Assembly: GCA_030265395.1 (NCBI GenBank) | Contig: JARFYF010000074.1 | Span: forward strand, 96,206,756-96,270,755 | Source of the DNA: Rhina ancylostomus | Lineage: Eukaryota | Reading direction: 5' to 3' | Length of the DNA: 64,000 nt | Part shown: piece after piece, positions 1 to 59,301 of the stretch | Position numbering within the stretch: the first letter of the stretch is position 1 | Layout of the letters: each line of letters opens with the position of its first letter | Translations under genes and position numbers: made by a program | Notes under the pieces: generated by a model | Databases searched by the model: none | Told to the model about the DNA's origin: nothing | What the model saw: only the letters and a program-made list of their open reading frames with translations

Positions 1-505
1 GGCTGATGGGCCCATTTCTGTGCTGTATTGCTCTATGACACTGTAAAATCCTTAGCAACAATTCATCCATTCTTCCTGCTCTACTACATGGCTCATTGCC
101 AGCCTTTTGTCACTAATTTGCTGCAATCCATCATCAACTGTTTTTCATGAAGGGCAAGAGGGAAGTGTTTATTGTTCCATTCAAAATAGTCAATGGTAAA
201 GAGCAAATTGCATTGGTGCCAATGTTAGTTGTGATGGTATGGCACAGATAGCCTGGGTTAAACATAGCACCACATCATTTCTATTGTTGTTCAATTTCAT
301 TCTAGCATTTGTAAGTTTGGCTTGATGCCTGTATGAAATAATGTGACCCTAGTATTTAAACACCATCAGCAATACTTTGGCAACAAAACGTTGNNNNNNN
401 NNNTAAGGATCTGATTATTTTGGAGAATTGTACGTTCAGATCGAGCTGGTGCTCTAATTGCATGCTAATCTATGTCACTGATCACAGCTGTAGGAATTGA
501 AAAAT

Positions 506-512
506 ATGCAAA
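506..512 (+). CDS. Possible first coding segment (ATG CAA A) of the Cut8/Sts1-like gene
   Basis: ATGCAAA|gtaatc donor, then a 68-nt intron with a ttctaat branch-like motif ending in tttag at 580. Phase 1 matches the next exon. The real start could instead lie upstream of the window. Confidence 0.35.
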
Positions 513-580
513 GTAATCCAATATTAGCATATCAAAGAAGTCATCAAAGTTTCTAATCTAATTTATATTTTAATATTTAG

Positions 581-638
581 ATTTTACTGAGGCATTGATC
601 ATACCAAAATTACATCGTGTTCAGTTTGATCATTCAAA
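581..638 (+). CDS. Cut8/Sts1-like gene, exon (xFTEALIIPKLHRVQFDHSK)
   Basis: tttag acceptor, gtatgc donor, open frame; phase 1 to 2 fits the next exon. Confidence 0.65.
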
Positions 639-1192
639 GTATGCATAATATGCATTTTCTATGTTCACATGAATCATTAATGTTCAAAGAAAGCAGTGTA
701 CACATATCACTGTGGCATATGACTGGGTAAAGAAATTCAACAGACCTGCAAGTAAATAGTGCTTATTTTCTCTTGGCCAGTTATGTTAATGCAGTCATGT
801 TACTGGCTTCTTAGTTAATTGTCTTGAATTCAGTTACCCTCTTCAGGATTAAAATGTAATCAATGCACAACCTGGAGCATGGATTATAACAGGATTAAAA
901 TCTGAATACCATTATTACAGTTTCACTGCTAATGCTTTTGCCTTTTTCTATAATGAAGCAAAATGGGAATCCCTTATTAGCAGAGGTGTATCTTGTTGAA
1001 TCAGTTTTTGTGTGCAGGTTTCTCTCGAGACTTGGGATTATAATTTTATTACATAAGATTTCCACTTGCCCTACCGATTTCCCTGGCAATGTTGTTACAT
1101 CCCTTAATCTTAAAAAGTGAAGTTTAACATTACAGGTGGCAAGTATACTGCATTTGATTGTGGTACATTCTTAATAAGTTAGGTTCCATTTA

Positions 1193-1450
1193 GGGGTGGC
1201 ACGGCAGCGTAGTGGTTAGCACGATGCTATTACAGCACCAGTGACCGGGGTTCGATTCCCGCCACTGCCTGTAAGGAGTTTGTACGTTCTCCCATGTCTG
1301 TATGGATTTCCTCCGGGTGCTCCGGTTTCCTCCCACATTCCAAAGACGTACAGGTAGGTTAATTTAGGGGTTTAAAACGGGCGGTGTGGGCTGCCCATTC
1401 TCGTTGGGCTGGAAGCGCCTGTTACCACGCTGTAAATATTAAAAAAAAAT
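1193..1450 (+). mobile_element. tRNA-derived SINE (V-SINE/HE1-like)
   Basis: tRNA-like head with A box and B box (GGTTCGATTCC at ~1249), core 'tttgtacgttctcccatgtctg..ttcctccgggtgctccggtttcctcccacattccaaagacgta', A-rich tail. Confidence 0.85.
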
Positions 1451-1698
1451 AGTGGTTGAGATGGCAATATTAGAAACATTTAAAGGCCATCTGGAAGGTA
1501 TATGGATAGGAGAGGTATAGAGGGCTATGGGCCAAATATATATAAATAAAATCATCCAAAAGCAAACACTTTCAGCAGATCAGGTGTTCCTGGGGGTTTG
1601 CACTTGTTGCCTTTTGAAATAATAGAAGGAAAGTAATAAAAAGGTCCTGTCACTATTTTCATTTAATTGTTTTTCCCTCTTTTAGTCCATCTTCGCAG

Positions 1699-1805
1699 GT
1701 CCTATGAAGAAATTCTGAATTCTACAAGAGCACAAACACGGTTAACAGCACTTCATGCCAATGTTCCTCCAGCGTCTTTTCTGAGAAGAGAGAATGAACC
1801 AACAG
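1699..1805 (+). CDS. Cut8/Sts1-like gene, exon (SYEEILNSTRAQTRLTALHANVPPASFLRRENEPT)
   Basis: Polypyrimidine tract plus cgcag acceptor, gtgatt donor, phase 2 to 1. Confidence 0.75.
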
Positions 1806-3059
1806 GTGATTGTTTTGTTCAGGATGTGAATGTTGAGTCAAGTTTGTGTGTGTGTGTGATCATTAGTGCAATAGTTGTCATCCCATCCATGTAAATAAAA
1901 GACAATGGGCTATTCCCCTTCCTCTTTTTTTGTCTTACATAAGATGTAGACTTTATTTAAAAAAGTAATGTACAAACATATGAATTAAAAGTCTGGGTAG
2001 GCCACTTGGTCCCTGTTTCTCATTTTATAAGGTCATGGGTGATCTACTTATAATCTTGACTGCATTTTTGTCCACCTGCAGTAAGCTTGTACGTCCTGTT
2101 GCTATCAAGAATTGATCCAACTTTGTCTTACAAGAAAGTTAAGGATTTTTTTTTTGTTATGTTTCAATTAAGTTCCCTCTCTCACTTTTAAACACCAGCA
2201 GGTACAAGCCTTGCTTGTCTGACCACTCTCTGTAAGATAACTTGCACATTTCCATACTTAGCCTAGCAAACCTTATCTGATCTTCCAATGCTTTAACATT
2301 CTCCCTTAAATGTTATTACTGCACACAGTGCTCCAGATGTTGTGCAAATGATTCTGAAGAACCAGTATTCAATGCTGCAACCAGTATGTTATCAGGATCC
2401 TCAGTCAACAGTAGTCTTGGTTGGTTATCTTGGGTTTTTTTGGCCAGTGTGTTCAGCTGTTTCATTATATGGAGTGAATTAAACTGACTGAAAATTGGCT
2501 TCTGTAATGCTGGGGAGCTCTGGAGATGGATCAGCTACTGTGTTTAGCATTGAAGACTGTTGTGCAATCTTTCTCATTAATGTGATGAGTTCTACCCTCA
2601 TAAATTGAGGGTGTTCACGCAGCAACCCCTTCTGTTCGGCTCTCATGAGAGCTTGGATTTAATTTGCTGTTTGTGAGGTTTCTAGCCTTTGTCTTTTAGA
2701 GTATTATATAAAACATCTAATGCTCATCTGTTGTTTGACCAGTCTGTTGGGCAGTTCTCCCATTAGGACAAGGCCTTGGTATTATTGAGGAGGACTTTGC
2801 TGTGTAAATTGCAATAGTTGTATTTCTCTCTATTATAGTTGTATTTTAGTTACTTATCCAGACAAAAAAAAACACAACACTATCTTGTTATCATAAATAC
2901 AGAGAGGCAATCTGTTGGAAAATTTTGGTAGGCATTATTCAGACCAAGTATTCACTGTGTCCATCTTAGAATTAAATTTGTTTTTAAATCAATTATGGAA
3001 GGTCCTTAAGAAACTATGCAAATGCATATTGTTTTCAGGTTGATAGCTAGTAGAGCTAT

Positions 3060-3330
3060 CATGTGGCACAGCTAGTAGAGCTGTTGCCTCACAGCTCTAG
3101 CAACTGGGTTCAATCTTGACCTTTGTCTGTGTGAAGTCTGCCTGTTCTCTGTGGGTTTCTTCCTAGTGGTCTGGTTTGCATTATCAAAGATGTTCAGATT
3201 GGTAGGTTAATTGGCCATGGTGAATTGCTGAGTGATTAAAATCTTAGGAAAATTGATGGAGAATGTGGGGCAAATAATGTGAAGGATTAGTGTAAATGGG
3301 TGCTTGATGGTCAATGTACAGTGAAGTCTA
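3060..3330 (+). mobile_element. Degenerate HE1-like SINE
   Basis: tRNA-like head (gggttcaatct), V-SINE core remnants, 'ggtaggttaattggcca...ggattagtgtaaatgggtgcttgatggtc'. Confidence 0.7.
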
Positions 3331-3566
3331 TCAAATAAAAATGAGAAAAATAACCAGAAAATTTGCCTTGATACAGATTGAAATATTCGAGTGTATAACA
3401 TAATGCCTTTTATTAGCCTTATTGATCTTTATGGTTTTGTCTGGGCCTTTGTAAGGGAGCAACTTAAACTATTACAACAGGCATATGTATATATGATAGT
3501 TTTAGCTATTGGCAATTATCCACCTTTTTATTTTGCTAAATACATTTTTATGTTTTCCAATACAAG

Positions 3567-3683
3567 ATATTTCTGAAGTCACATCACTCACCAGAAGAAA
3601 CTTTGGATCTAGAAGAGGAATGTGCATCAGTTCATCAAATTTTATCAATAACAAAAAAACATTGGAAAATGACAGTGAGAAAG
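3567..3683 (+). CDS. Cut8/Sts1-like gene, exon (DISEVTSLTRRNFGSRRGMCISSSNFINNKKTLENDSEK)
   Basis: tacaag acceptor, gtgtgt donor, phase 1 to 1, open frame. Confidence 0.72.
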
Positions 3684-4025
3684 GTGTGTGTCTGATGCTA
3701 TTTAATACAAACCTGAGTGTTTCTGTGGAATTCATTTCGCATCCATTTTGTGCTCGTAGTCAAAATTCCACAGTGGGATCCAAGTGCACCATAGATATTT
3801 GACAGATATCAAACAGTTGCCATCATTTTCAATCTATGTCAAGAGAGTTTTGTTTTGAATGCAAGGTAACTATGTTATGGTGATTTGTTCTCGCATGCCA
3901 TTTGCAGAGAGAACAAATGTGTGCACCCAAGAGACATTAATCCTTTGGTAGCATTGTAAAGTATACTGTTTAACAGAAATATTTCCATGAAAGAACTGAC
4001 AAAACTTAAAATTTTCACTTTTCAG

Positions 4026-4156
4026 AATCACCTTTCAAGAAACAACGACTGCATTTTAAACCAGGTGTAAATTTAGAAGTCAAACTGAATGATTTATTAA
4101 CATCTCAGCTAGTGCATACTCTCTTATTGCACCGATATCCAGCAATTGATGATGAG
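4026..4156 (+). CDS. Cut8/Sts1-like gene, exon with NLS-like PFKKQRL (ESPFKKQRLHFKPGVNLEVKLNDLLTSQLVHTLLLHRYPAIDDE)
   Basis: ttttcag acceptor, gtatgt donor, phase 1 to 0. Confidence 0.8.
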
Positions 4157-4333
4157 GTATGTAGTCATGTTGTGACATTAACCTAACATGCCACAATTTT
4201 TTATACTTAAACTGGACCAAAGTCTCACTAAAGCTTCCCTCTAATCCTTGACAACAGACTTAAATGTGCATTGTAACTCTGGCTGTTGAGTTCAGAATTA
4301 AATCAAATCCAGTGTTTTTTTTTCCTGAAATAG

Positions 4334-4495
4334 GACATGAAATTGGTTCTTCCATCATTGATCCTGAAATGTGCTCAGAAACAGCTGGAGTTATCCAAAA
4401 GCAATGTTTATCGTTCAATACCACGATGGCGCTTGGGTTCCAACAGAGATGCATACTGCTATCGCAAAGCACATAATCATCTTCAGGCTTTCAAG
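4334..4495 (+). CDS. Cut8/Sts1-like gene, exon (DMKLVLPSLILKCAQKQLELSKSNVYRSIPRWRLGSNRDAYCYRKAHNHLQAFK)
   Basis: aaatag acceptor after a T tract, gtttgt donor, 162 nt phase 0 to 0. The 'YRSIP...DAYCYRKAHNHL..F' segment resembles the Cut8 core. Confidence 0.82.
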
Positions 4496-6183
4496 GTTTG
4501 TATTCTCCAACTAAGATGGATTGGACTGCCATAAGAATACTTGTTTCCACTAACATTTTCCACCTTTTATACTGTATTTCTAAGTGTACTAATTTATACA
4601 AGCTGGTGGACACCAGCAGTTCCTTATTTAATATAGTGGTTATTTGTATGCTCAGTACACACAAATCAGAGATGATCATCAGAGATGCTTAATCGTCTTA
4701 TTCTATGGATGTCTCAATCAATATTTAAAATAATAGTCAGGATTGCAAAACTTTGATTTAACAATTTGATCCTTGGGCCTAATGAAATAAAATAACCTTG
4801 GCATTTAACAGATTTACCAAATGGCTCAGTGCTAGTGTAAAGGAAGTTAAAATTAAACTTTCCAGATACTGGGAATTTGAAATCGAATAATAGAAAATAG
4901 TGGAAACACTCAACAATGGAAGACCTTGAAATGTTAATTCTGTTTCACTTTCCCAAGATGCTGTCTGACCTGCTGTATTTCCAGCTCTTTCTGTTTTTAT
5001 TTTTTTATTGAACATGCTTCATGTATACAAATTATGTACTTAAAATTTTAATACAAGTGGATGACAATCGGGCATCAAAGTTCATGTGTATCAAACATAG
5101 TCTTAACAGGATGGATGAATAAATGGTAAGGAAATTAAGTTCAATGAGCCTCTTCCTAAAAATAAATCTCTACTGAGTTGCAGAGGTGGATGTTTCCATT
5201 GCCTTGTCTTACCATGAAAAGCTTGCTCGTTTCAGCCCTAACCTTGCTTTGGTTGGTTTCCGTAATCTCTTATCTTTATAAAGTTTAAACTGATAATTTT
5301 CTCTGTGACTCTCATTTCTTTCAAATGCTGCAAACCCCACATTTCTCCAGCCATTTCTCAAAACTGCCACCAGTCAAGACTTGGCCACAAGTGGCATATT
5401 ATTCCAAATATAGTCTTACTTGTTTGGTTTGTTTTTCATAGTATACTTTGGCATTCTACTACCTTGAAATTTATCAACTGTGTTGTCACCAAATGCTGGC
5501 AATCCTTCACACACGTCCTTTATGGATTTTAAAACAAAATTCCTGAGTGCATTTATCACATTTTTTAATGTTTACTTGTTATTACATTTTATTTGCATTT
5601 TTCTGTCTGCTTAAATATTTTACTAAATAACTTATCTTTTGGTAGTCCATCCTATGATTTGACAGCACTATTTTGATTTTGGCTGTATTTGTTCCAACTG
5701 CCTAGAGGCAGAAATAAAATTCAAACTTTGGTGGTTGGGGAGGAGGGGCTCACTCCAAAGATATATGCTTAGCATGCACCTTCCACCTACCAGTTTTGTC
5801 CACTGTTAAATGAAGACGTAATTGTGTTTATTTCCTCTTGCTACATGGTCCAAAGGGCTTGCTTGTAAAAAAAAATGTAAATAAAATGAAACAATCCATC
5901 CTCCTTTTTATTATGTATACAGAGTTTTTAATCATTCAACATGTGGAAACTAAATGCCTTCACAGCCATGATCTCTTGATATCCTGATTTAAAGCAACTA
6001 AAAGACACAAAACGGGGAACCTATTTTATCCTTTTCAAAGCTTCTCCTACTGATTTAAGTCCTGGGCATCTTATCCTTCACGGAAAGGTTCAGTCAGGTT
6101 CTGGTGGGTGATGTGAAATTTATTCAAATCAACAGAAGTGACTTAGAAAATGTTATGATGGATTGGATTTTGTTTCTTTGCAG

Positions 6184-6410
6184 AGAACGTGCCTGGAACA
6201 AGGGAAGCTATTATTGCAAGCAGGATGCTGGGAAACTTCATTAAACTACATACTGATTGCGTGGAGGACTACAAGTGAACTTCCACAGTGGGATAATAGC
6301 TTCCACAATGAATGTACACAACAGTGTTTTACAGTTTTAGCTGTTCAGGGCATAACTGCCTTGCAAAGAAGCTGTCTAGAGTTGGACAAGTATAAACAAC
6401 TTCGGAAAAG
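6184..6410 (+). CDS. Cut8/Sts1-like gene, exon (RTCLEQGKLLLQAGCWETSLNYILIAWRTTSELPQWDNSFHNECTQQCFTVLAVQGITALQRSCLELDKYKQLRKR)
   Basis: tttgcag acceptor, gtaaat donor; carries the LPxWD...HN....CF..L motif typical of Cut8/Sts1. Confidence 0.85.
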
Positions 6411-7598
6411 GTAAATGCTTCAACATCGATGTTAAGAGAGGTATAGAATTAATTTCTGGAAAGGGGTGTTGANNNNNNNNNNNNNNNNNNNNNNNNNNNN
6501 NNNNNNNNNNNNNNNNNNNNNNNNNNNNNNNNNNNNNNNNNNNNNNNNNNNNNNNNNNNNNNNNNNNNNNNNTCTGGAAAGGGGTGTTGAATTGGTAGTG
6601 ACTTTCCAAAATACTCTACAATGTAAATGTAAAAATCACATTGTTATTAATGTTGGTCATAGTTCCAGATGGCCAACCATACAAGGAGTTGGTGACTTTT
6701 TTTAAAAAGGGTTGCATTTGCACTCCTCCCAGACTCTTCCTTGAAATGAAATAATCATATTACAAATAACTACTGAATTCTTAGATCATAAATATTTCAA
6801 TTGGTTCAGACTTAAATTTTTAGTTGTCAAGGAAATATAAACGTTGTTTAAATACAGTCCTCATAATTCCTTGTTTTTGGCCTGATATTCTATTGGAGCT
6901 GCTCTACTCATTTTCATTTATAGATTACCCTTTCCTGTAAAATGTAAAATCTACCAAAAATGAGCAAATTAATCATTTTCATCCATTATTAGCCTGGCTA
7001 TTGTAAGTAAAGTCTATGACATGAACTGCATAACTAATATTTAAGCTAACCTTCATATATTTTCATTTGTCTTTGATGTGCCCAGAACTTTAGTTTTCCC
7101 TCTTATTTTCCTAGGTTTTGTGTACATTGACCAGGCTGTTGCCTACTCCAGTTTTTCTTCCAAAGTATCCTCCAATTCATCCATTTGGAAATTAATACTG
7201 ATCTGCACCCCCCCCACCCCTTTTATTTTGTATGTTGTAGCAAAATTGTCAAGTTGATCAAACAATGAAGGTAGATGTTGTAACTTAAATGGCCTGATTG
7301 GGAGGGGAGGATGGGAATATAAACTTAACGTTGCATAAGACCCTTGTTCATGTGTCTTCATATCATGGGACATGTATTCATTTCTGAAAGTAACCTAGTT
7401 ACTAAAGTTTAGTTGTCTGAGTTTACTGAAGCACTATATCAACAATGACCATTGAGGCTTGAGATCTGGTGTTGATAACATTATAGGCTTTACCCTGGCA
7501 CTTAAGAAGCTGAGTAATGGAAGGAAGAACACAATTGTAATTTATATAATGTAATAAAAGCAAAATAATAATTCTAACAATTCTTCTTTCTGTTACAG

Positions 7599-7719
7599 AC
7601 TTAGAATTGCGTATACACAAAACAAACTGATCAAACCCTGTCTTGAAGAATTGGATAGGATAATTGTAGTCCTGGAATGCAGTCCTTCAGAACAAAATCC
7701 CTCTTGCCTAAATGCTTGA
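7599..7719 (+). CDS. Cut8/Sts1-like gene, last coding exon (LRIAYTQNKLIKPCLEELDRIIVVLECSPSEQNPSCLNA*)
   Basis: ttctaac branch point, pyrimidine tract and ttacag acceptor; phase 2 matches; TGA at 7717-7719. Confidence 0.8.
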
Positions 7720-8360
7720 AATTTCAACTTGAATGAGAAGTTTAGTATGTCCACAGCGAGAAAATCCAATGCCTTCAGAGGCAAATGGCAGCTCTATTTC
7801 CTTTTGGTTTGCTGCAGAAAGGTTATATTTGATATCAAACCTGTTTGTTCAAAATGACTTGTCCATATCAGAGTACTCCTACTTTGCATTGGATTGGGGC
7901 CAGCATAACATTATGGAAAATTGGAATTAAAAGGAGTGGCCTTTGGAATTTAATGATCAAATAACATATTTGGTGGAGAAAATAGTATTTTTTTACATGT
8001 TTGGGAAAGGTGGGGACGGGGCAGGTAGCCTGTGTCCTCTAATTCAAATTGTTCACTTTTTAAACAAAAAAGGAAGAATAGCTTTTTTTTTAAACCTCAA
8101 AATGGTAACTGCAGGATTCTGTCTTGAGACAATATGCAATTGTAGGTAATTGGATTGATGGATCTTATGGAGGTTTGTGCAAGTTTTGGTACTGATCATT
8201 TTGGATATTTCTGGAAATGTGAAAGTATAAAATTGAGATTTTTTAAAATGTGGATTGTATTTTTTTTTTGAAAATCATCCAGTGAGTCTTAAATCACTCC
8301 TTTCTTGTATAAGAAAACAGAGTGCTGTAAGTCGTAGCATGCAAATAGAATGTATGGTAC

Positions 8361-8712
8361 AATAAATTTGGTGCAATAGCAATATTAGTAATCTAATAAT
8401 GGCAATTGCACTTTAACCTTTGACTAATTACTGTTTTTAATATGGAGTTTCTGGTAATAAACCAAAAAACAAGTTATGAATTTTGGCCAGAGTTGAGCAT
8501 ATTTTTCATATGTTTAAAAAAAACCTATTCTTTAAATTATCTATGGATTTCATAAATGTGTAAATTTACCTAGTTATGAGCAATGTAATATGTTTATTCT
8601 TACTCGAACACTGAAATGCAATGTATCCAACATGTGAAGAAAAATTATCATTTATGTTTTAGCTGTTTTTGTAAATGAGCAATTTGGTGTTTATAAGAGT
8701 TTTCCAAATAAA
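8361..8712 (+). terminator. Candidate polyadenylation signals of the Cut8-like gene
   Basis: AATAAA at 8361, 8456 and 8707 in an AU-rich 3'UTR-like region free of obvious repeats. Confidence 0.4.
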
Positions 8713-9479
8713 ATGAGTACTAACTTATAACCTTTAAAAATGCATGGAGATTGGATTTTCAAAATTATTGCATTTTCAATTTTAAAAATGATATTGTAAA
8801 TGTCTTGTTTTGCAATATCTAATATCAAGCAGACTGAGGGATTCAATGTTCTATTGAAAATGGTGCATTTATCAATTAGTCATTTTCCTTAATCAAGCTG
8901 TAAAATGAAGTAACAGAAAGTCAACTACTTGCTCAAAATCAATAATGTTAGTCTTGCCCTCTACAATGAGTATACAGCCTTCACACCCTGTCTGCCTGAA
9001 ATTTGTGGGTGTTGATTCCAAACTTTTCCTTGCTGGTGCTGTTTCTCTCCCAAACTTCTGTGGAGCTTGTATCTTAACTCTGTTGCTTGATCTTGGTGCA
9101 CTGTTAGTGCTGCACCAGTTAACCTTACTCTGTGGAAATTAACACCTGTCATCTGGAGGTGCAATAGCAAAATGAGTCATATCACTTGTAATAATTATTT
9201 GGAGAAAGCATACTAAGTTTAGGCTTAAATTAGCCAGTTGCTCAGAAATTGGGTCCAACTGATGGGAAGAAAGTACCATTCTGTGCACTAGCTCTGGGTA
9301 GTTCTGGGTTCAAAGATGGAATCTGTATCTCTAGAGTTAAGGGATAATTAGAGAAGTTATTGTGCTGTAGGTAGCAGTCTCCAAACAACCAAATTGGAAT
9401 GAAACTGTTAAATAATAGAAATATTAAAGAAATTTTGCGTCTTATTTCAATGATTTTGTTTAAAGTGGTGTCATAGTTA

Positions 9480-12759: not shown

Positions 12760-13200
12760 ACCACCGTGAGAACTCACAGTCCTGAGCCACGCCAAGACTG
12801 AGTGCCGTAAATAAACTCGCCCCTGGAGTTTCTTTACGGCAGCTCTCTTCTCTCACGACGCTGGGTCGCGGGGCGGGGAGAATCCGGCGAACCGGCTTAC
12901 GGCAGCAGCTGAGGGACGGACGTGGAAGCGGAGAGAGGGATGGCGGCGGCCGAGGACGGGCGGCTTGTGCCGGCAGACGATGGCAGCAGCAGCAGCAGCT
13001 GGTGGGTGTCAGCCTGGCTTGGCTTGCGGTCGGCTTGAAACGGCAGGGAGCCGGCGGGCCTTGAATGTGCCCAGAGTGGCGGTGCCTCTCTAGCGGGTAC
13101 GAGTGGCTCTACACCATCGAGCCCAGGCGAAGAGCCTGAAGCTGGACAGAGGATCGATTGGAGGGATGGGCTGAGTGTTTGACAGAGTCTCTTCATTTCA
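12760..13200. promoter_or_regulatory. CpG-island promoter of TBC1D23
   Basis: Abrupt GC and CpG enrichment in an AT-rich background; GC box GGGGCGGGG at 12870-12878; spans coding exon 1. Confidence 0.8.
12940..13001 (+). CDS. TBC1D23: TBC1 domain family member 23, coding exon 1 (MAAAEDGRLVPADDGSSSSSW)
   Basis: ATG in good Kozak context inside the CpG island; TG|gtgggt donor; phase 2 joins exon 2 to give W-DKDL. Confidence 0.85.
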
Positions 13201-40324: not shown

Positions 40325-41790
40325 TATAAGACATAGGAGCAGAATTAGGCCATTTGGCCCAATTAGTCTGCTCCACCATTCAATCATTTTTTGCCCTCTC
40401 AACACCGTTCTCCTGCCTTCTCACCGTAACCTTTGACAACCTTACTAGTCAAGAACCTATCAACCTCCACTTTAAGTATACCCAATAACTTGGCCCCCAC
40501 AGCCATCTGTGGCAATGAATTCCACAAATCCACCACTTTCTGTCTAAAGAAATTCTTCCTAACCTCTGTTCTAAAGGGATATCCTTCTATTCTGAGGCTG
40601 TGCCCTCTGGTCCAAGATTCTCCCACGACTGGAAATATCCTCTTCACGTCCATTCCGTCCAGGCGTTTCAATATTTGGTAGGTTTCAATGAGATCCCCCT
40701 CTTATCCTTCTAAACTTCAGCAAGAATAGGTCCAGAGCCATCAAACACTCATCATATGTAAACCCTTTCATACCTAGGATCATTCTTGTAAACCTCCTCT
40801 GGACCCTCTCCAATACCAGCACATTCTCCCTTTTAATATGGGACCCAAAACTGCTCACAATATTCCAAATGTGGTCTGACCAATGCCTTATACAGCCTCA
40901 GCATTACCTCCTTGCTTTTATATTCTAGTCCTCTCAAAATAAATGTTAACATTGTATTTGCCTTCCTTGCTACTGACTCAACCTGCAAGTTAACCTTGAA
41001 GGAATCCTGCACTAGGACTTCCAAGTGCCTTTGCACCTCCAATTTCTGAATTTGCTCCCCATTTAGAAAATAGTCTACACCGTTATTCCTTCTACCAATG
41101 TGCATGACCATACACTTCTGTACACTGTATTCCATCTGCCACTTCTTTGCCCATTCTCCCACCCTGTCCAAATTGTTCTGCAGACTCCCTGCTTCCTCAA
41201 CACAACCTGCCCCGCCACCTATCTTTGTATCATCCGCAAACTTGGCCACAAAGCCATCGGTTCTGTCACCTAGATCATCAACATAATGTATAACGTGAAA
41301 AATAGCAGACCCAACAGTGAATTCTATCAAACTATGATCACTGCCTCCTAAGGGTTCCCTTGCCTTTAGCTCCCTTATCAAATCTGGTTCACTGGACAGC
41401 ACTAAATCCAGAAATGCCTTTTCCCTAGTGCGCACAACCACAAGCTGCTCTAAGAATCCATCTTGTAGGCATTCTACAAATTCCTCCTCTTCGGATCCAG
41501 TACCAACTTGATTTTCCCAAGCTACCTGCATATTGCAATNNNNNNNNNNATTTTTGAATCCCCCCCCCCCCCCCCCCCTGACCATTATAACATTTCCCTT
41601 TTTACATGCCTTTTCTCTTTCCTGTTGTAATTTGTACACCACGTCCCAGCTGCTATTTGGAGGCCTATATAAAATTCCCATTAGGGTCATTTTTCCCCTG
41701 CAATTTCTTAACTCTACCCACGTTTTCTGCATCTTCTGATCCTATGTCATGTCTTGCTCAGGATTTGATATCATTTTTTCCCCAACAGAG
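40325..41790 (-). mobile_element. CR1-type LINE with a large internal deletion (endonuclease fused to RT C-terminus)
   Basis: ORF 40833-41732: APE motifs 'ILYRPPNS' and 'GSDH', directly followed by 'AKFADDTKIGG..HLEYCEQFW'; intact CR1 3' end. Confidence 0.9.

Positions 41791-50559: not shown

Positions 50560-50853
<294 letters not shown>

Positions 50854-51693: not shown

Positions 51694-51933
<240 letters not shown>

Positions 51934-59082: not shown

Positions 59083-59301
<219 letters not shown>

Follow-up and report, generated by a model that had tools for sequence, protein, structure and literature searches.

A spliced gene of the Cut8/Sts1 family in the ray Rhina ancylostomus, encoding a candidate nuclear proteasome adaptor

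The closest described systems are two yeast proteins. According to PMC4279164, Cut8 of S. pombe (structures 3q5w and 3q5x; Pfam PF08559) acts as an anchor at the inner nuclear membrane. It is reportedly degraded via Rhp6/Ubc2, and its bundle reportedly binds membrane or cholesterol (Takeda, 2011). Sts1 of S. cerevisiae (PMC10808114) has 319 residues, with its helical bundle at residues 116-276; its NLS is bipartite, and its degradation needs no ubiquitin. In human cells the import of proteasomes is already the task of akirin (PMC12979645); AKIRIN2 binds the alpha ring of the 20S particle by its SYVS tail and, according to PMC8961600, cannot carry particles that are capped at both ends, and the entry route of 19S-capped particles was called unclear in 2026 (PMC12979645). 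The same article states that Sts1 has no vertebrate homologue, and an earlier one (PMC10520889, 2023) that a homologue was found only in Drosophila.

The window, that is, the whole stretch of 64,000 nucleotides from Rhina ancylostomus that was analysed, holds on its forward strand a spliced, stop-free reading frame with AG/GT boundaries and consistent phases, whose six coding exons lie between 1686 and 7719. With one further exon upstream of the window they encode a protein of 314 residues (Table 1). The use of donor 1841 instead of 1805 gives a form of 326 residues, which has 310 of 328 residues in common with the isoform P0104. The first-pass annotation had proposed an intact gene of eight segments and about 309 residues, beginning at an ATG at 506; the open frame, splice sites and phases stood, and the start and the exon count had to be replaced. 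The segment 506..548 (+) was rejected as first exon, since it lies within intron 1, has no counterpart in the homologues and is bypassed by spliced contigs of a relative; models from 506 over the six window exons gave 294, 303 or 306 residues. The upstream exon is identical to the homologue P0001 at 21 of 22 residues and encodes the D-box-like motif R-Q-V-L-V-E-I-P-N, and because of the wrong first exon this most conserved N-terminal motif had been missed.

Table 1. Features of the Cut8/Sts1-family gene (positions are those of the window unless another coordinate system is named).
Feature	Position	Strand	Evidence or remark
Intron 1, 3' part	1..1685	+	Coding exon 1 lies upstream, beyond the window
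Coding exon 1, 22 codons + 1 nt (67 nt)	L007:3545-3611 = G000:C74:96200300-96200366		Roughly 6.45 kb upstream of window position 1
Coding exon 2, conserved RRSY segment	1686..1805	+	Alternative donor 1841 adds 12 residues
Coding exon 3, disordered linker	3567..3683	+	Homologue match; relative's spliced contig
Coding exon 4, with KKQR (4037-4048, NLS candidate) and the beginning of the Cut8 dimer-domain-like segment	4026..4156	+	
Coding exon 5, helical bundle start, YRSIP..LGSNRDA motif	4334..4495	+	Pfam Cut8 E 1.1e-4
Coding exon 6, core of the bundle with SELPQWD...HN motif	6184..6410	+	Pfam Cut8 40.3 bits, E 3.5e-10
Coding exon 7 with TGA stop	7599..7719	+	Homologue match; relative's spliced contig
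Likely 3' UTR	7720..8740	+	AATAAA at 8361, 8456 and 8707; X1 contig reaches 8740

Exons 1 to 7 are joined by contigs of X1 and X2, two runs of one study on a close relative of Rhina ancylostomus whose RNA nature is probable but only guessed. In both runs exon 1 is spliced directly to 1686. The expected junctions were thereby seen in the relative, not in the species itself. Contig ends, such as that of X1 at 8740, cannot show a true transcript end. The relative's contig enters exon 3 at 3561/3562; as 3559-3560 reads AA and not AG in the window, the acceptor was placed 6 nt downstream. Part of intron 1 is given as N in the stretch, and a small additional exon may lie there in Rhina ancylostomus, although the relative's contigs have none. 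A crude count against the relative's contig gave at least 21 differences in 20 codons, with 8 synonymous codons over 192 sites and 12 non-synonymous over 631 sites; the ratio of about 0.5 comes from too few changes to weigh. Seven of the 12 non-synonymous codons fall in the disordered arm. The genome has one locus for the gene, placed between FILIP1L-like and TBC1D23 on a contig of 117 Mb. Matches to CDC50/TMEM30 in the same assembly fall on other contigs.

By profile and predicted structure, the gene belongs to the Cut8/Sts1 family, as had been proposed from its motifs. These motifs were all present: PFKKQRL at 4031-4051, YRSIP..LGSNRDAYCYRKAHNHL in 4334-4495 and W...ELPQWDNSFHN in 6184-6410. 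Exon 6, taken over 6184-6408, exceeds the curated cut-off of PF08559 (26.2 bits), and exon 5 by itself stays below it. The homologue P0001, which shares 300 of 316 residues with the gene of the window and was used for modelling, matched the family with 82.9 bits (E 3.6e-23, profile positions 39-237 of 241). All 100 aligned homologues match PF08559 (E<=0.01), and Cut8 is the sole family over cut-off.

A fold predicted at first with 10 sequences was of low quality (pLDDT 56.5, Foldseek E 9e-3) and gave way to a model from an alignment of 100 sequences, in which a disordered N-terminal arm is predicted to precede a helical bundle of Cut8 type. The pLDDT is mostly above 90 across the bundle and below 50 over most of residues 39-126, the disordered linker. 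The predicted six-helix bundle has the fold of Cut8: the top VIA-align match is 3q5w (Z 17.3, rmsd 1.9 Å over 139 residues; next Z 12.0), the best Foldseek match in the PDB is again S. pombe Cut8 (E 1.9e-4), and the same holds for HMMER (E 0.016 and 0.012). In the HMMER alignments KKQR falls on the basic patch of 3q5w, and the exon 4 segment on its small helical domain. This dimer-domain-like segment aligns with that of Cut8 in chondrichthyans, with helices predicted at 130-140 and 146-174; it is weakly conserved across fishes, and the best alignment by VIA-align begins at residue 157. A homodimer prediction for residues 118-306, in which the alignment was left unused, scored 0.00 and carries no weight either way. 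Identity to Cut8 is only 16-18%, and with it the proteasome-binding surface may have changed. The nearest ESM Atlas clusters (0.93-0.94) are arthropod Cut8-like proteins, a group with the Drosophila homologue, of 278-333 residues and 96-98% Pfam Cut8.

Compared by description, the fish protein resembles Sts1 in family and size and in a basic NLS candidate that precedes the helical domains, within an N-terminus predicted to be unstructured; a disordered N-terminal arm, again as predicted, is shared with Cut8. It differs from Cut8 in a longer N-terminal linker, from Sts1 in having a single KKQR patch, lost in teleosts, and from both in the D-box-like motif. The host also differs from S. pombe, since it has an open mitosis and an akirin gene. 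This akirin gene is a separate one, whose product ends in SYVS; with both genes in one genome, the suggested coexistence of the two is borne out at the level of genes. AKIRIN2 is unrelated in sequence; its NLS, disorder, short life and part in proteasome import, as far as described in PMC8961600 and PMC12979645, parallel what may be supposed for the fish protein.

The N-terminal half had been regarded as of low complexity, which suits the disordered linker but not residues 8-33, which are as conserved as the core. Of 133 homologues, 124 carry the D-box-like motif, which occurred in 3 of 722 background windows of 30 residues, and R8, L11 and I14 are invariant in 29 of 29 homologues. The exon 1 motif is an RxxL with an acidic residue at P6, an aliphatic one at P7 and N at P9, within a disordered region; the consensus, as given in PMC12401543, is RxxLxxxxN, and Ile fits position 7. 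Among the 93 members of alignment A3 that bear the motif, 11 have N at position 9 and most have A, E or T there, and RxxL motifs are described as frequently not degrons (PMC9713472). A basic patch K(K/R)x(K/R) stands ahead of the core in 19 of 21 non-teleost proteins, namely 11 of the 12 from chondrichthyans and 8 of the 9 from ray-finned fishes outside the teleosts; these are matches of motif rather than of import activity. Among 112 teleost-group proteins only 1 has this NLS candidate, whereas 104 have the D-box-like motif. Because of this near absence, and because residues 121-160 are weakly conserved in the 100 aligned homologues (mean 0.19-0.31), an importin-alpha step would not be general.

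We propose, with about even confidence, that the product of this intact, single-copy, spliced gene is a short-lived adaptor, by which proteasomes with a 19S cap are brought into the nucleus or held there. In sharks, rays and those ray-finned fishes that are not teleosts, importin-alpha would bind the KKQR patch; the six-helix bundle would bind the 26S particle, an interaction shown for Sts1 of yeast. The N-terminal RxxLxEI would act as a D-box through which APC/C clears the adaptor on exit from mitosis or in G1, and this loss would tie the re-import of proteasomes after an open mitosis to cell-cycle progress. The adaptor would serve capped particles without a 20S ring free for akirin, the two routes sharing the work. 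Against this reading stands akirin itself, which fills the role in human cells and is present in the ray as well.

The same architecture could have been put to another use. In a repurposed Cut8 descendant, a regulator of the cell cycle or germ line, the bundle would bind a partner other than the proteasome and the N-terminal motif would make the protein a substrate or pseudo-substrate inhibitor of APC/C. The persistence of that motif in teleost-group proteins that have nearly all lost the NLS candidate speaks for this, as do RSIP and SNRDA, invariant among fishes and only partly shared with Cut8, and the presence of akirin together with tetrapods that seem to manage without the gene. However, the order of disordered arm, basic patch, small helical domain and bundle is that of Sts1 and Cut8, and no alternative partner is indicated; we consider this reading possible but rather unlikely. 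A tether similar to the nuclear-membrane anchor is less probable still in our estimation. The structural match is Cut8 itself, and a tether could more easily bear the loss of the NLS candidate in teleosts, but a conserved degron-like motif suits a short-lived factor, as described for Cut8 in the review PMC4588042, more than a scaffold.

An origin from ZSWIM-type proteins, or by transfer or contamination instead of vertical descent from Cut8, is highly improbable; the ZSWIM origin and contamination were rejected. Xenopus Zswim4 is described with a cut8/STS1 domain (PMC10897318), and a ZSWIM8-TPR cluster appears in the ESM Atlas at 0.79. The fish protein, however, stands alone with its 314 residues and the Cut8 family only; the Pfam matches of the 100 homologues (E<=0.01) include neither a SWIM zinc finger nor a TPR_ZSWIM8 region, the marks of the long ZSWIM4/8 proteins, and two loci in the ray genome with ZSWIM8 TPR exons, the ones compared, show no similarity to the fish profile. 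Introns, the long contig with its two gene neighbours and a tree that follows the fish groups argue against such origins.

The gene was indeed kept in this lineage, as had been supposed, but it is not peculiar to it. All 119 named homologues come from cartilaginous or ray-finned fishes, and none is called Cut8 or Sts1; zebrafish is not among the species named. The set holds no invertebrate, lamprey, lungfish, coelacanth or amphibian sequences, and none of the 119 is from lobe-finned fishes or tetrapods in a search that was incomplete; the distribution hints at a loss earlier than mammals, which is for this reason only a lead. In human, the corresponding interval is FILIP1L/CMSS1-TBC1D23; a search for the CMS1 family in the ray genome found none, which does not show absence. 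Under the adaptor reading, jawed vertebrates would have begun with two import adaptors, akirin for particles whose 20S ring is free and, for 19S-capped particles, a Cut8/Sts1 orthologue newly placed under APC/C by its D-box. Cartilaginous and ray-finned fishes would have kept both, whereas the lobe-finned and tetrapod line would have lost the Cut8 gene between FILIP1L and TBC1D23, a loss that would have made AKIRIN2 essential in mammals; we offer this history as speculative and on balance doubtful.

The statements that vertebrates have no homologue of Sts1 and that one was found only in Drosophila are contradicted, at the level of sequence, by the ray gene and by its orthologues in medaka, carp, salmon, tilapia and fugu. 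A literature search by gene identifier gave no match. The Pfam tag was already precomputed on the fish proteins, so that the fact was overlooked rather than hidden. With these genes, two questions can be put to the test in vertebrate cells: whether proteins of the Cut8/Sts1 family import proteasomes or tether them where mitosis is open, and how 19S-capped particles enter the nucleus.

The Cut8-like gene is real, and the first exon proposed for it in the first-pass annotation is wrong. That annotation had joined eight segments at 506..7719 into ~309 aa; this structure was not reproduced, and we found seven coding exons encoding 314 aa, with identity to the Pristis pectinata homologue P0001 at 300/316 residues. 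The frame is indeed open at 506, but the segment had no match in the homologues, and the true N-terminus is located upstream of the window. An alternative donor at 1841 gives a form of 326 aa, which agrees with the isoform P0104. The in-frame extension of exon 2 (1806-1841, 36 nt) matches Pristis isoform X1 and is similar to an insert in shark proteins. The coordinates are collected in the table.

Coding exons of the Cut8-like gene and neighbouring features (window positions unless a stretch of the same assembly beyond the window is named)
Feature	Position	Strand	Basis
Cut8-like coding exon 1	L007:3545-3611, ~6.45 kb before window		ATG and GT donor; N-terminus common to first ten homologues
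Cut8-like coding exon 2	1686-1805	+	AG/GT boundaries, matching phase
Cut8-like coding exon 3	3567-3683	+	AG/GT boundaries, matching phase
Cut8-like coding exon 4	4026-4156	+	AG/GT boundaries, matching phase
Cut8-like coding exon 5	4334-4495	+	AG/GT boundaries, matching phase
Cut8-like coding exon 6	6184-6410	+	AG/GT boundaries, matching phase
Cut8-like coding exon 7	7599-7719	+	last coding exon, matching phase
TBC1D23 probable first exon	12940-13003, CpG island, ~4.2 kb after Cut8-like 3' UTR	+	presumed
TBC1D23 rhodanese-like exon	50560-50853	+	Pfam
TBC1D23 exon	51694-51933	+	presumed
TBC1D23_C exon	59083-59301	+	Pfam
FILIP1L-like open exon, 803 codons	L011:1427-3835, ~47 kb upstream of window	+	ESM Atlas 0.97

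Splicing was examined in four sequencing runs, none of them recorded as RNA, of which X1 and X2, from one study of a close relative, were presumed to be RNA. Their contigs covered the exons and the 3' UTR and skipped the introns; a single X1 contig of 1,923 bases spanned exons 2-7 and ended at 8740. Three GT..AG joints were found in both runs, and in both exon 1 was joined straight to exon 2. The junctions are thus supported in the relative rather than in Rhina ancylostomus itself. The exon 3 acceptor of the relative's contigs and of P0001 lies six bases earlier than that of the window, where AA replaces AG (3559-3566), so that the next AG must be used and two residues are lost; either the species differs at this site or the assembly is in error. 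Very high-copy SINE-like short repeats lie in the introns at about 1200-1430 and 3060-3310, with very high summed contig depth. In one short X1 contig (record 1, L007:3364) the start of exon 2 stood ahead of the 5' end portion of exon 1; this is probably an artefact, produced at a short word common to both by template switching or during assembly.

Membership in the Cut8/Sts1 family, as first proposed from motifs, is near certain judging by sequence and predicted fold. Exon 6 alone scored 40.3 bits against Pfam Cut8 (cut-off 26.2) and P0001 scored 82.9 bits; all 100 members of A3, the alignment of homologues, matched Cut8 at E<=0.01, and other families gave two single weak matches only. In the AlphaFold2 model from A3, the arm was disordered and the helical part was predicted with confidence. 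S. pombe Cut8 ranked first in Foldseek (E 1.9e-4), with a high rmsd that is likely due to a different position of the small domain, and in VIA-align against 48,161 chains (Z 17.3, 1.9 A, 139 residues; next row Z 12.0). Cut8 was also the best HMMER match in the PDB (E 0.012-0.016), and arthropod Cut8 clusters were the nearest ESM Atlas neighbours. Protein and Pfam searches of the assembly each gave one Cut8-like locus, counts that are lower bounds.

Two profile searches (102/102 matches, and the best 120 of 153) listed 133 distinct proteins. Of the 119 named ones, 12 were chondrichthyan and 107 came from ray-finned fishes, which ranged from reedfish and sturgeon through medaka and fugu; the 14 unnamed showed 77-99% identity to named ray-finned fish proteins. 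The names Cut8 or Sts1 were absent among the matches listed, nearly all being "uncharacterized", "hypothetical" or "unnamed". P0148, a tilapia member (cluster 9), carries the source name "glutaryl-CoA dehydrogenase", apparently a mis-annotation. In a tree without outgroup, built from 40 of the first 102 matches and exons 2-7 of the window's gene, a 100/100 branch separated the chondrichthyans from the rest, and the window's gene adjoined P0001. The gene has been kept in this ray, as had been suggested, but its range is wider than one lineage and includes chondrichthyan and ray-finned fishes. None of the 119 named proteins among the matches listed (best 120 of 153 in the larger search) came from a lobe-finned fish or tetrapod. 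Loss in that line is taken only as a lead from sequence searches, because 33 weaker matches fall outside the best 120 of 153 and neither invertebrates nor zebrafish appear among the matches listed, though arthropod Cut8 clusters occur in ESM Atlas.

The strongest new feature was an N-terminal motif in exon 1, the exon previously missed. R8, L11 and I14 were invariant in 29/29 sequences, and RxxLx[DEQ][ILVM] preceded the helical core in 124/133 homologues vs 3/722 other 30-residue windows. Rays and sharks have N at position 9, which completes the D-box consensus RxxLxxxxN, including Ile at position 7 (PMC12401543); RxxL motifs can be false degrons (PMC9713472). Alternatively, the N-terminal segment may fold back onto the bundle (model pLDDT 61-69 at residues 11-40), like the low-confidence fold-back noted for Sts1. 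The candidate NLS patch KKQR in exon 4 aligns with the basic patch of S. pombe Cut8, and K(K/R)x(K/R) was present in 11/12 chondrichthyan, 8/9 non-teleost ray-finned and 1/112 teleost-group proteins. A CDK-type site, S-P-F-K (4028-4039), abuts KKQR here and in three other rays; sharks and P0001 have L-P-F-K.

In yeast, the bundle of Sts1 suffices to bind the 26S, and importin-alpha is bound through the N-terminal NLS (PMC10808114). AKIRIN2 acts through the free 20S ring and reportedly does not transport doubly capped particles (PMC8961600), and 19S entry into the nucleus is termed unclear (PMC12979645). Considering these points, the fish protein would be a short-lived adaptor for capped proteasome particles, its timing set by APC/C, a reading to which we give an even chance. 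A cell-cycle factor put to a new use is an unlikely explanation, a nuclear envelope tether less likely still, and some other origin of the gene very improbable. An akirin start motif had a sole exact match in the same assembly, a start exon (contig C55:22098078 onward; L013, L016, L017). Two more exons lie downstream of it, as does the last exon, which supplies the C-terminal SYVS and the stop; akirin and Cut8-like genes are therefore both in one genome.

TBC1D23 lies downstream of the Cut8-like gene on the same strand, as does the FILIP1L-like exon upstream. In human, FILIP1L and TBC1D23 are presumably neighbours on opposite strands, and their interval is therefore the place to look for a Cut8 relic. 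Decayed LINE-like fragments (window 40836-41537, minus strand; L007:29-1148; L008:988-1356; L009:7781-8020) gave weak endonuclease/reverse transcriptase matches, all under the cut-off.

Published papers state that for Sts1 "no homolog exists in vertebrates" (PMC12979645), that a Cut8/Sts1 homologue occurs "only in D. melanogaster" (PMC10520889), that none was identified in mammals (PMC4279164), and "absence in higher eukaryotes" (PMC4588042); PMC11513537 adds nothing on this range, and PMC10897318 says that Zswim4 contains a cut8/STS1 domain. No report of a fish Cut8 was found by title or start of abstract in the literature searched, which covers few subscription papers. The fish proteins already carry a precomputed Pfam tag. 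Takeda 2011 reportedly surveyed homologues across eukaryotes, and fish sequences may be among those given in the paper or its supplement. The fish Cut8-like gene contradicts a statement currently in print and opens direct tests.
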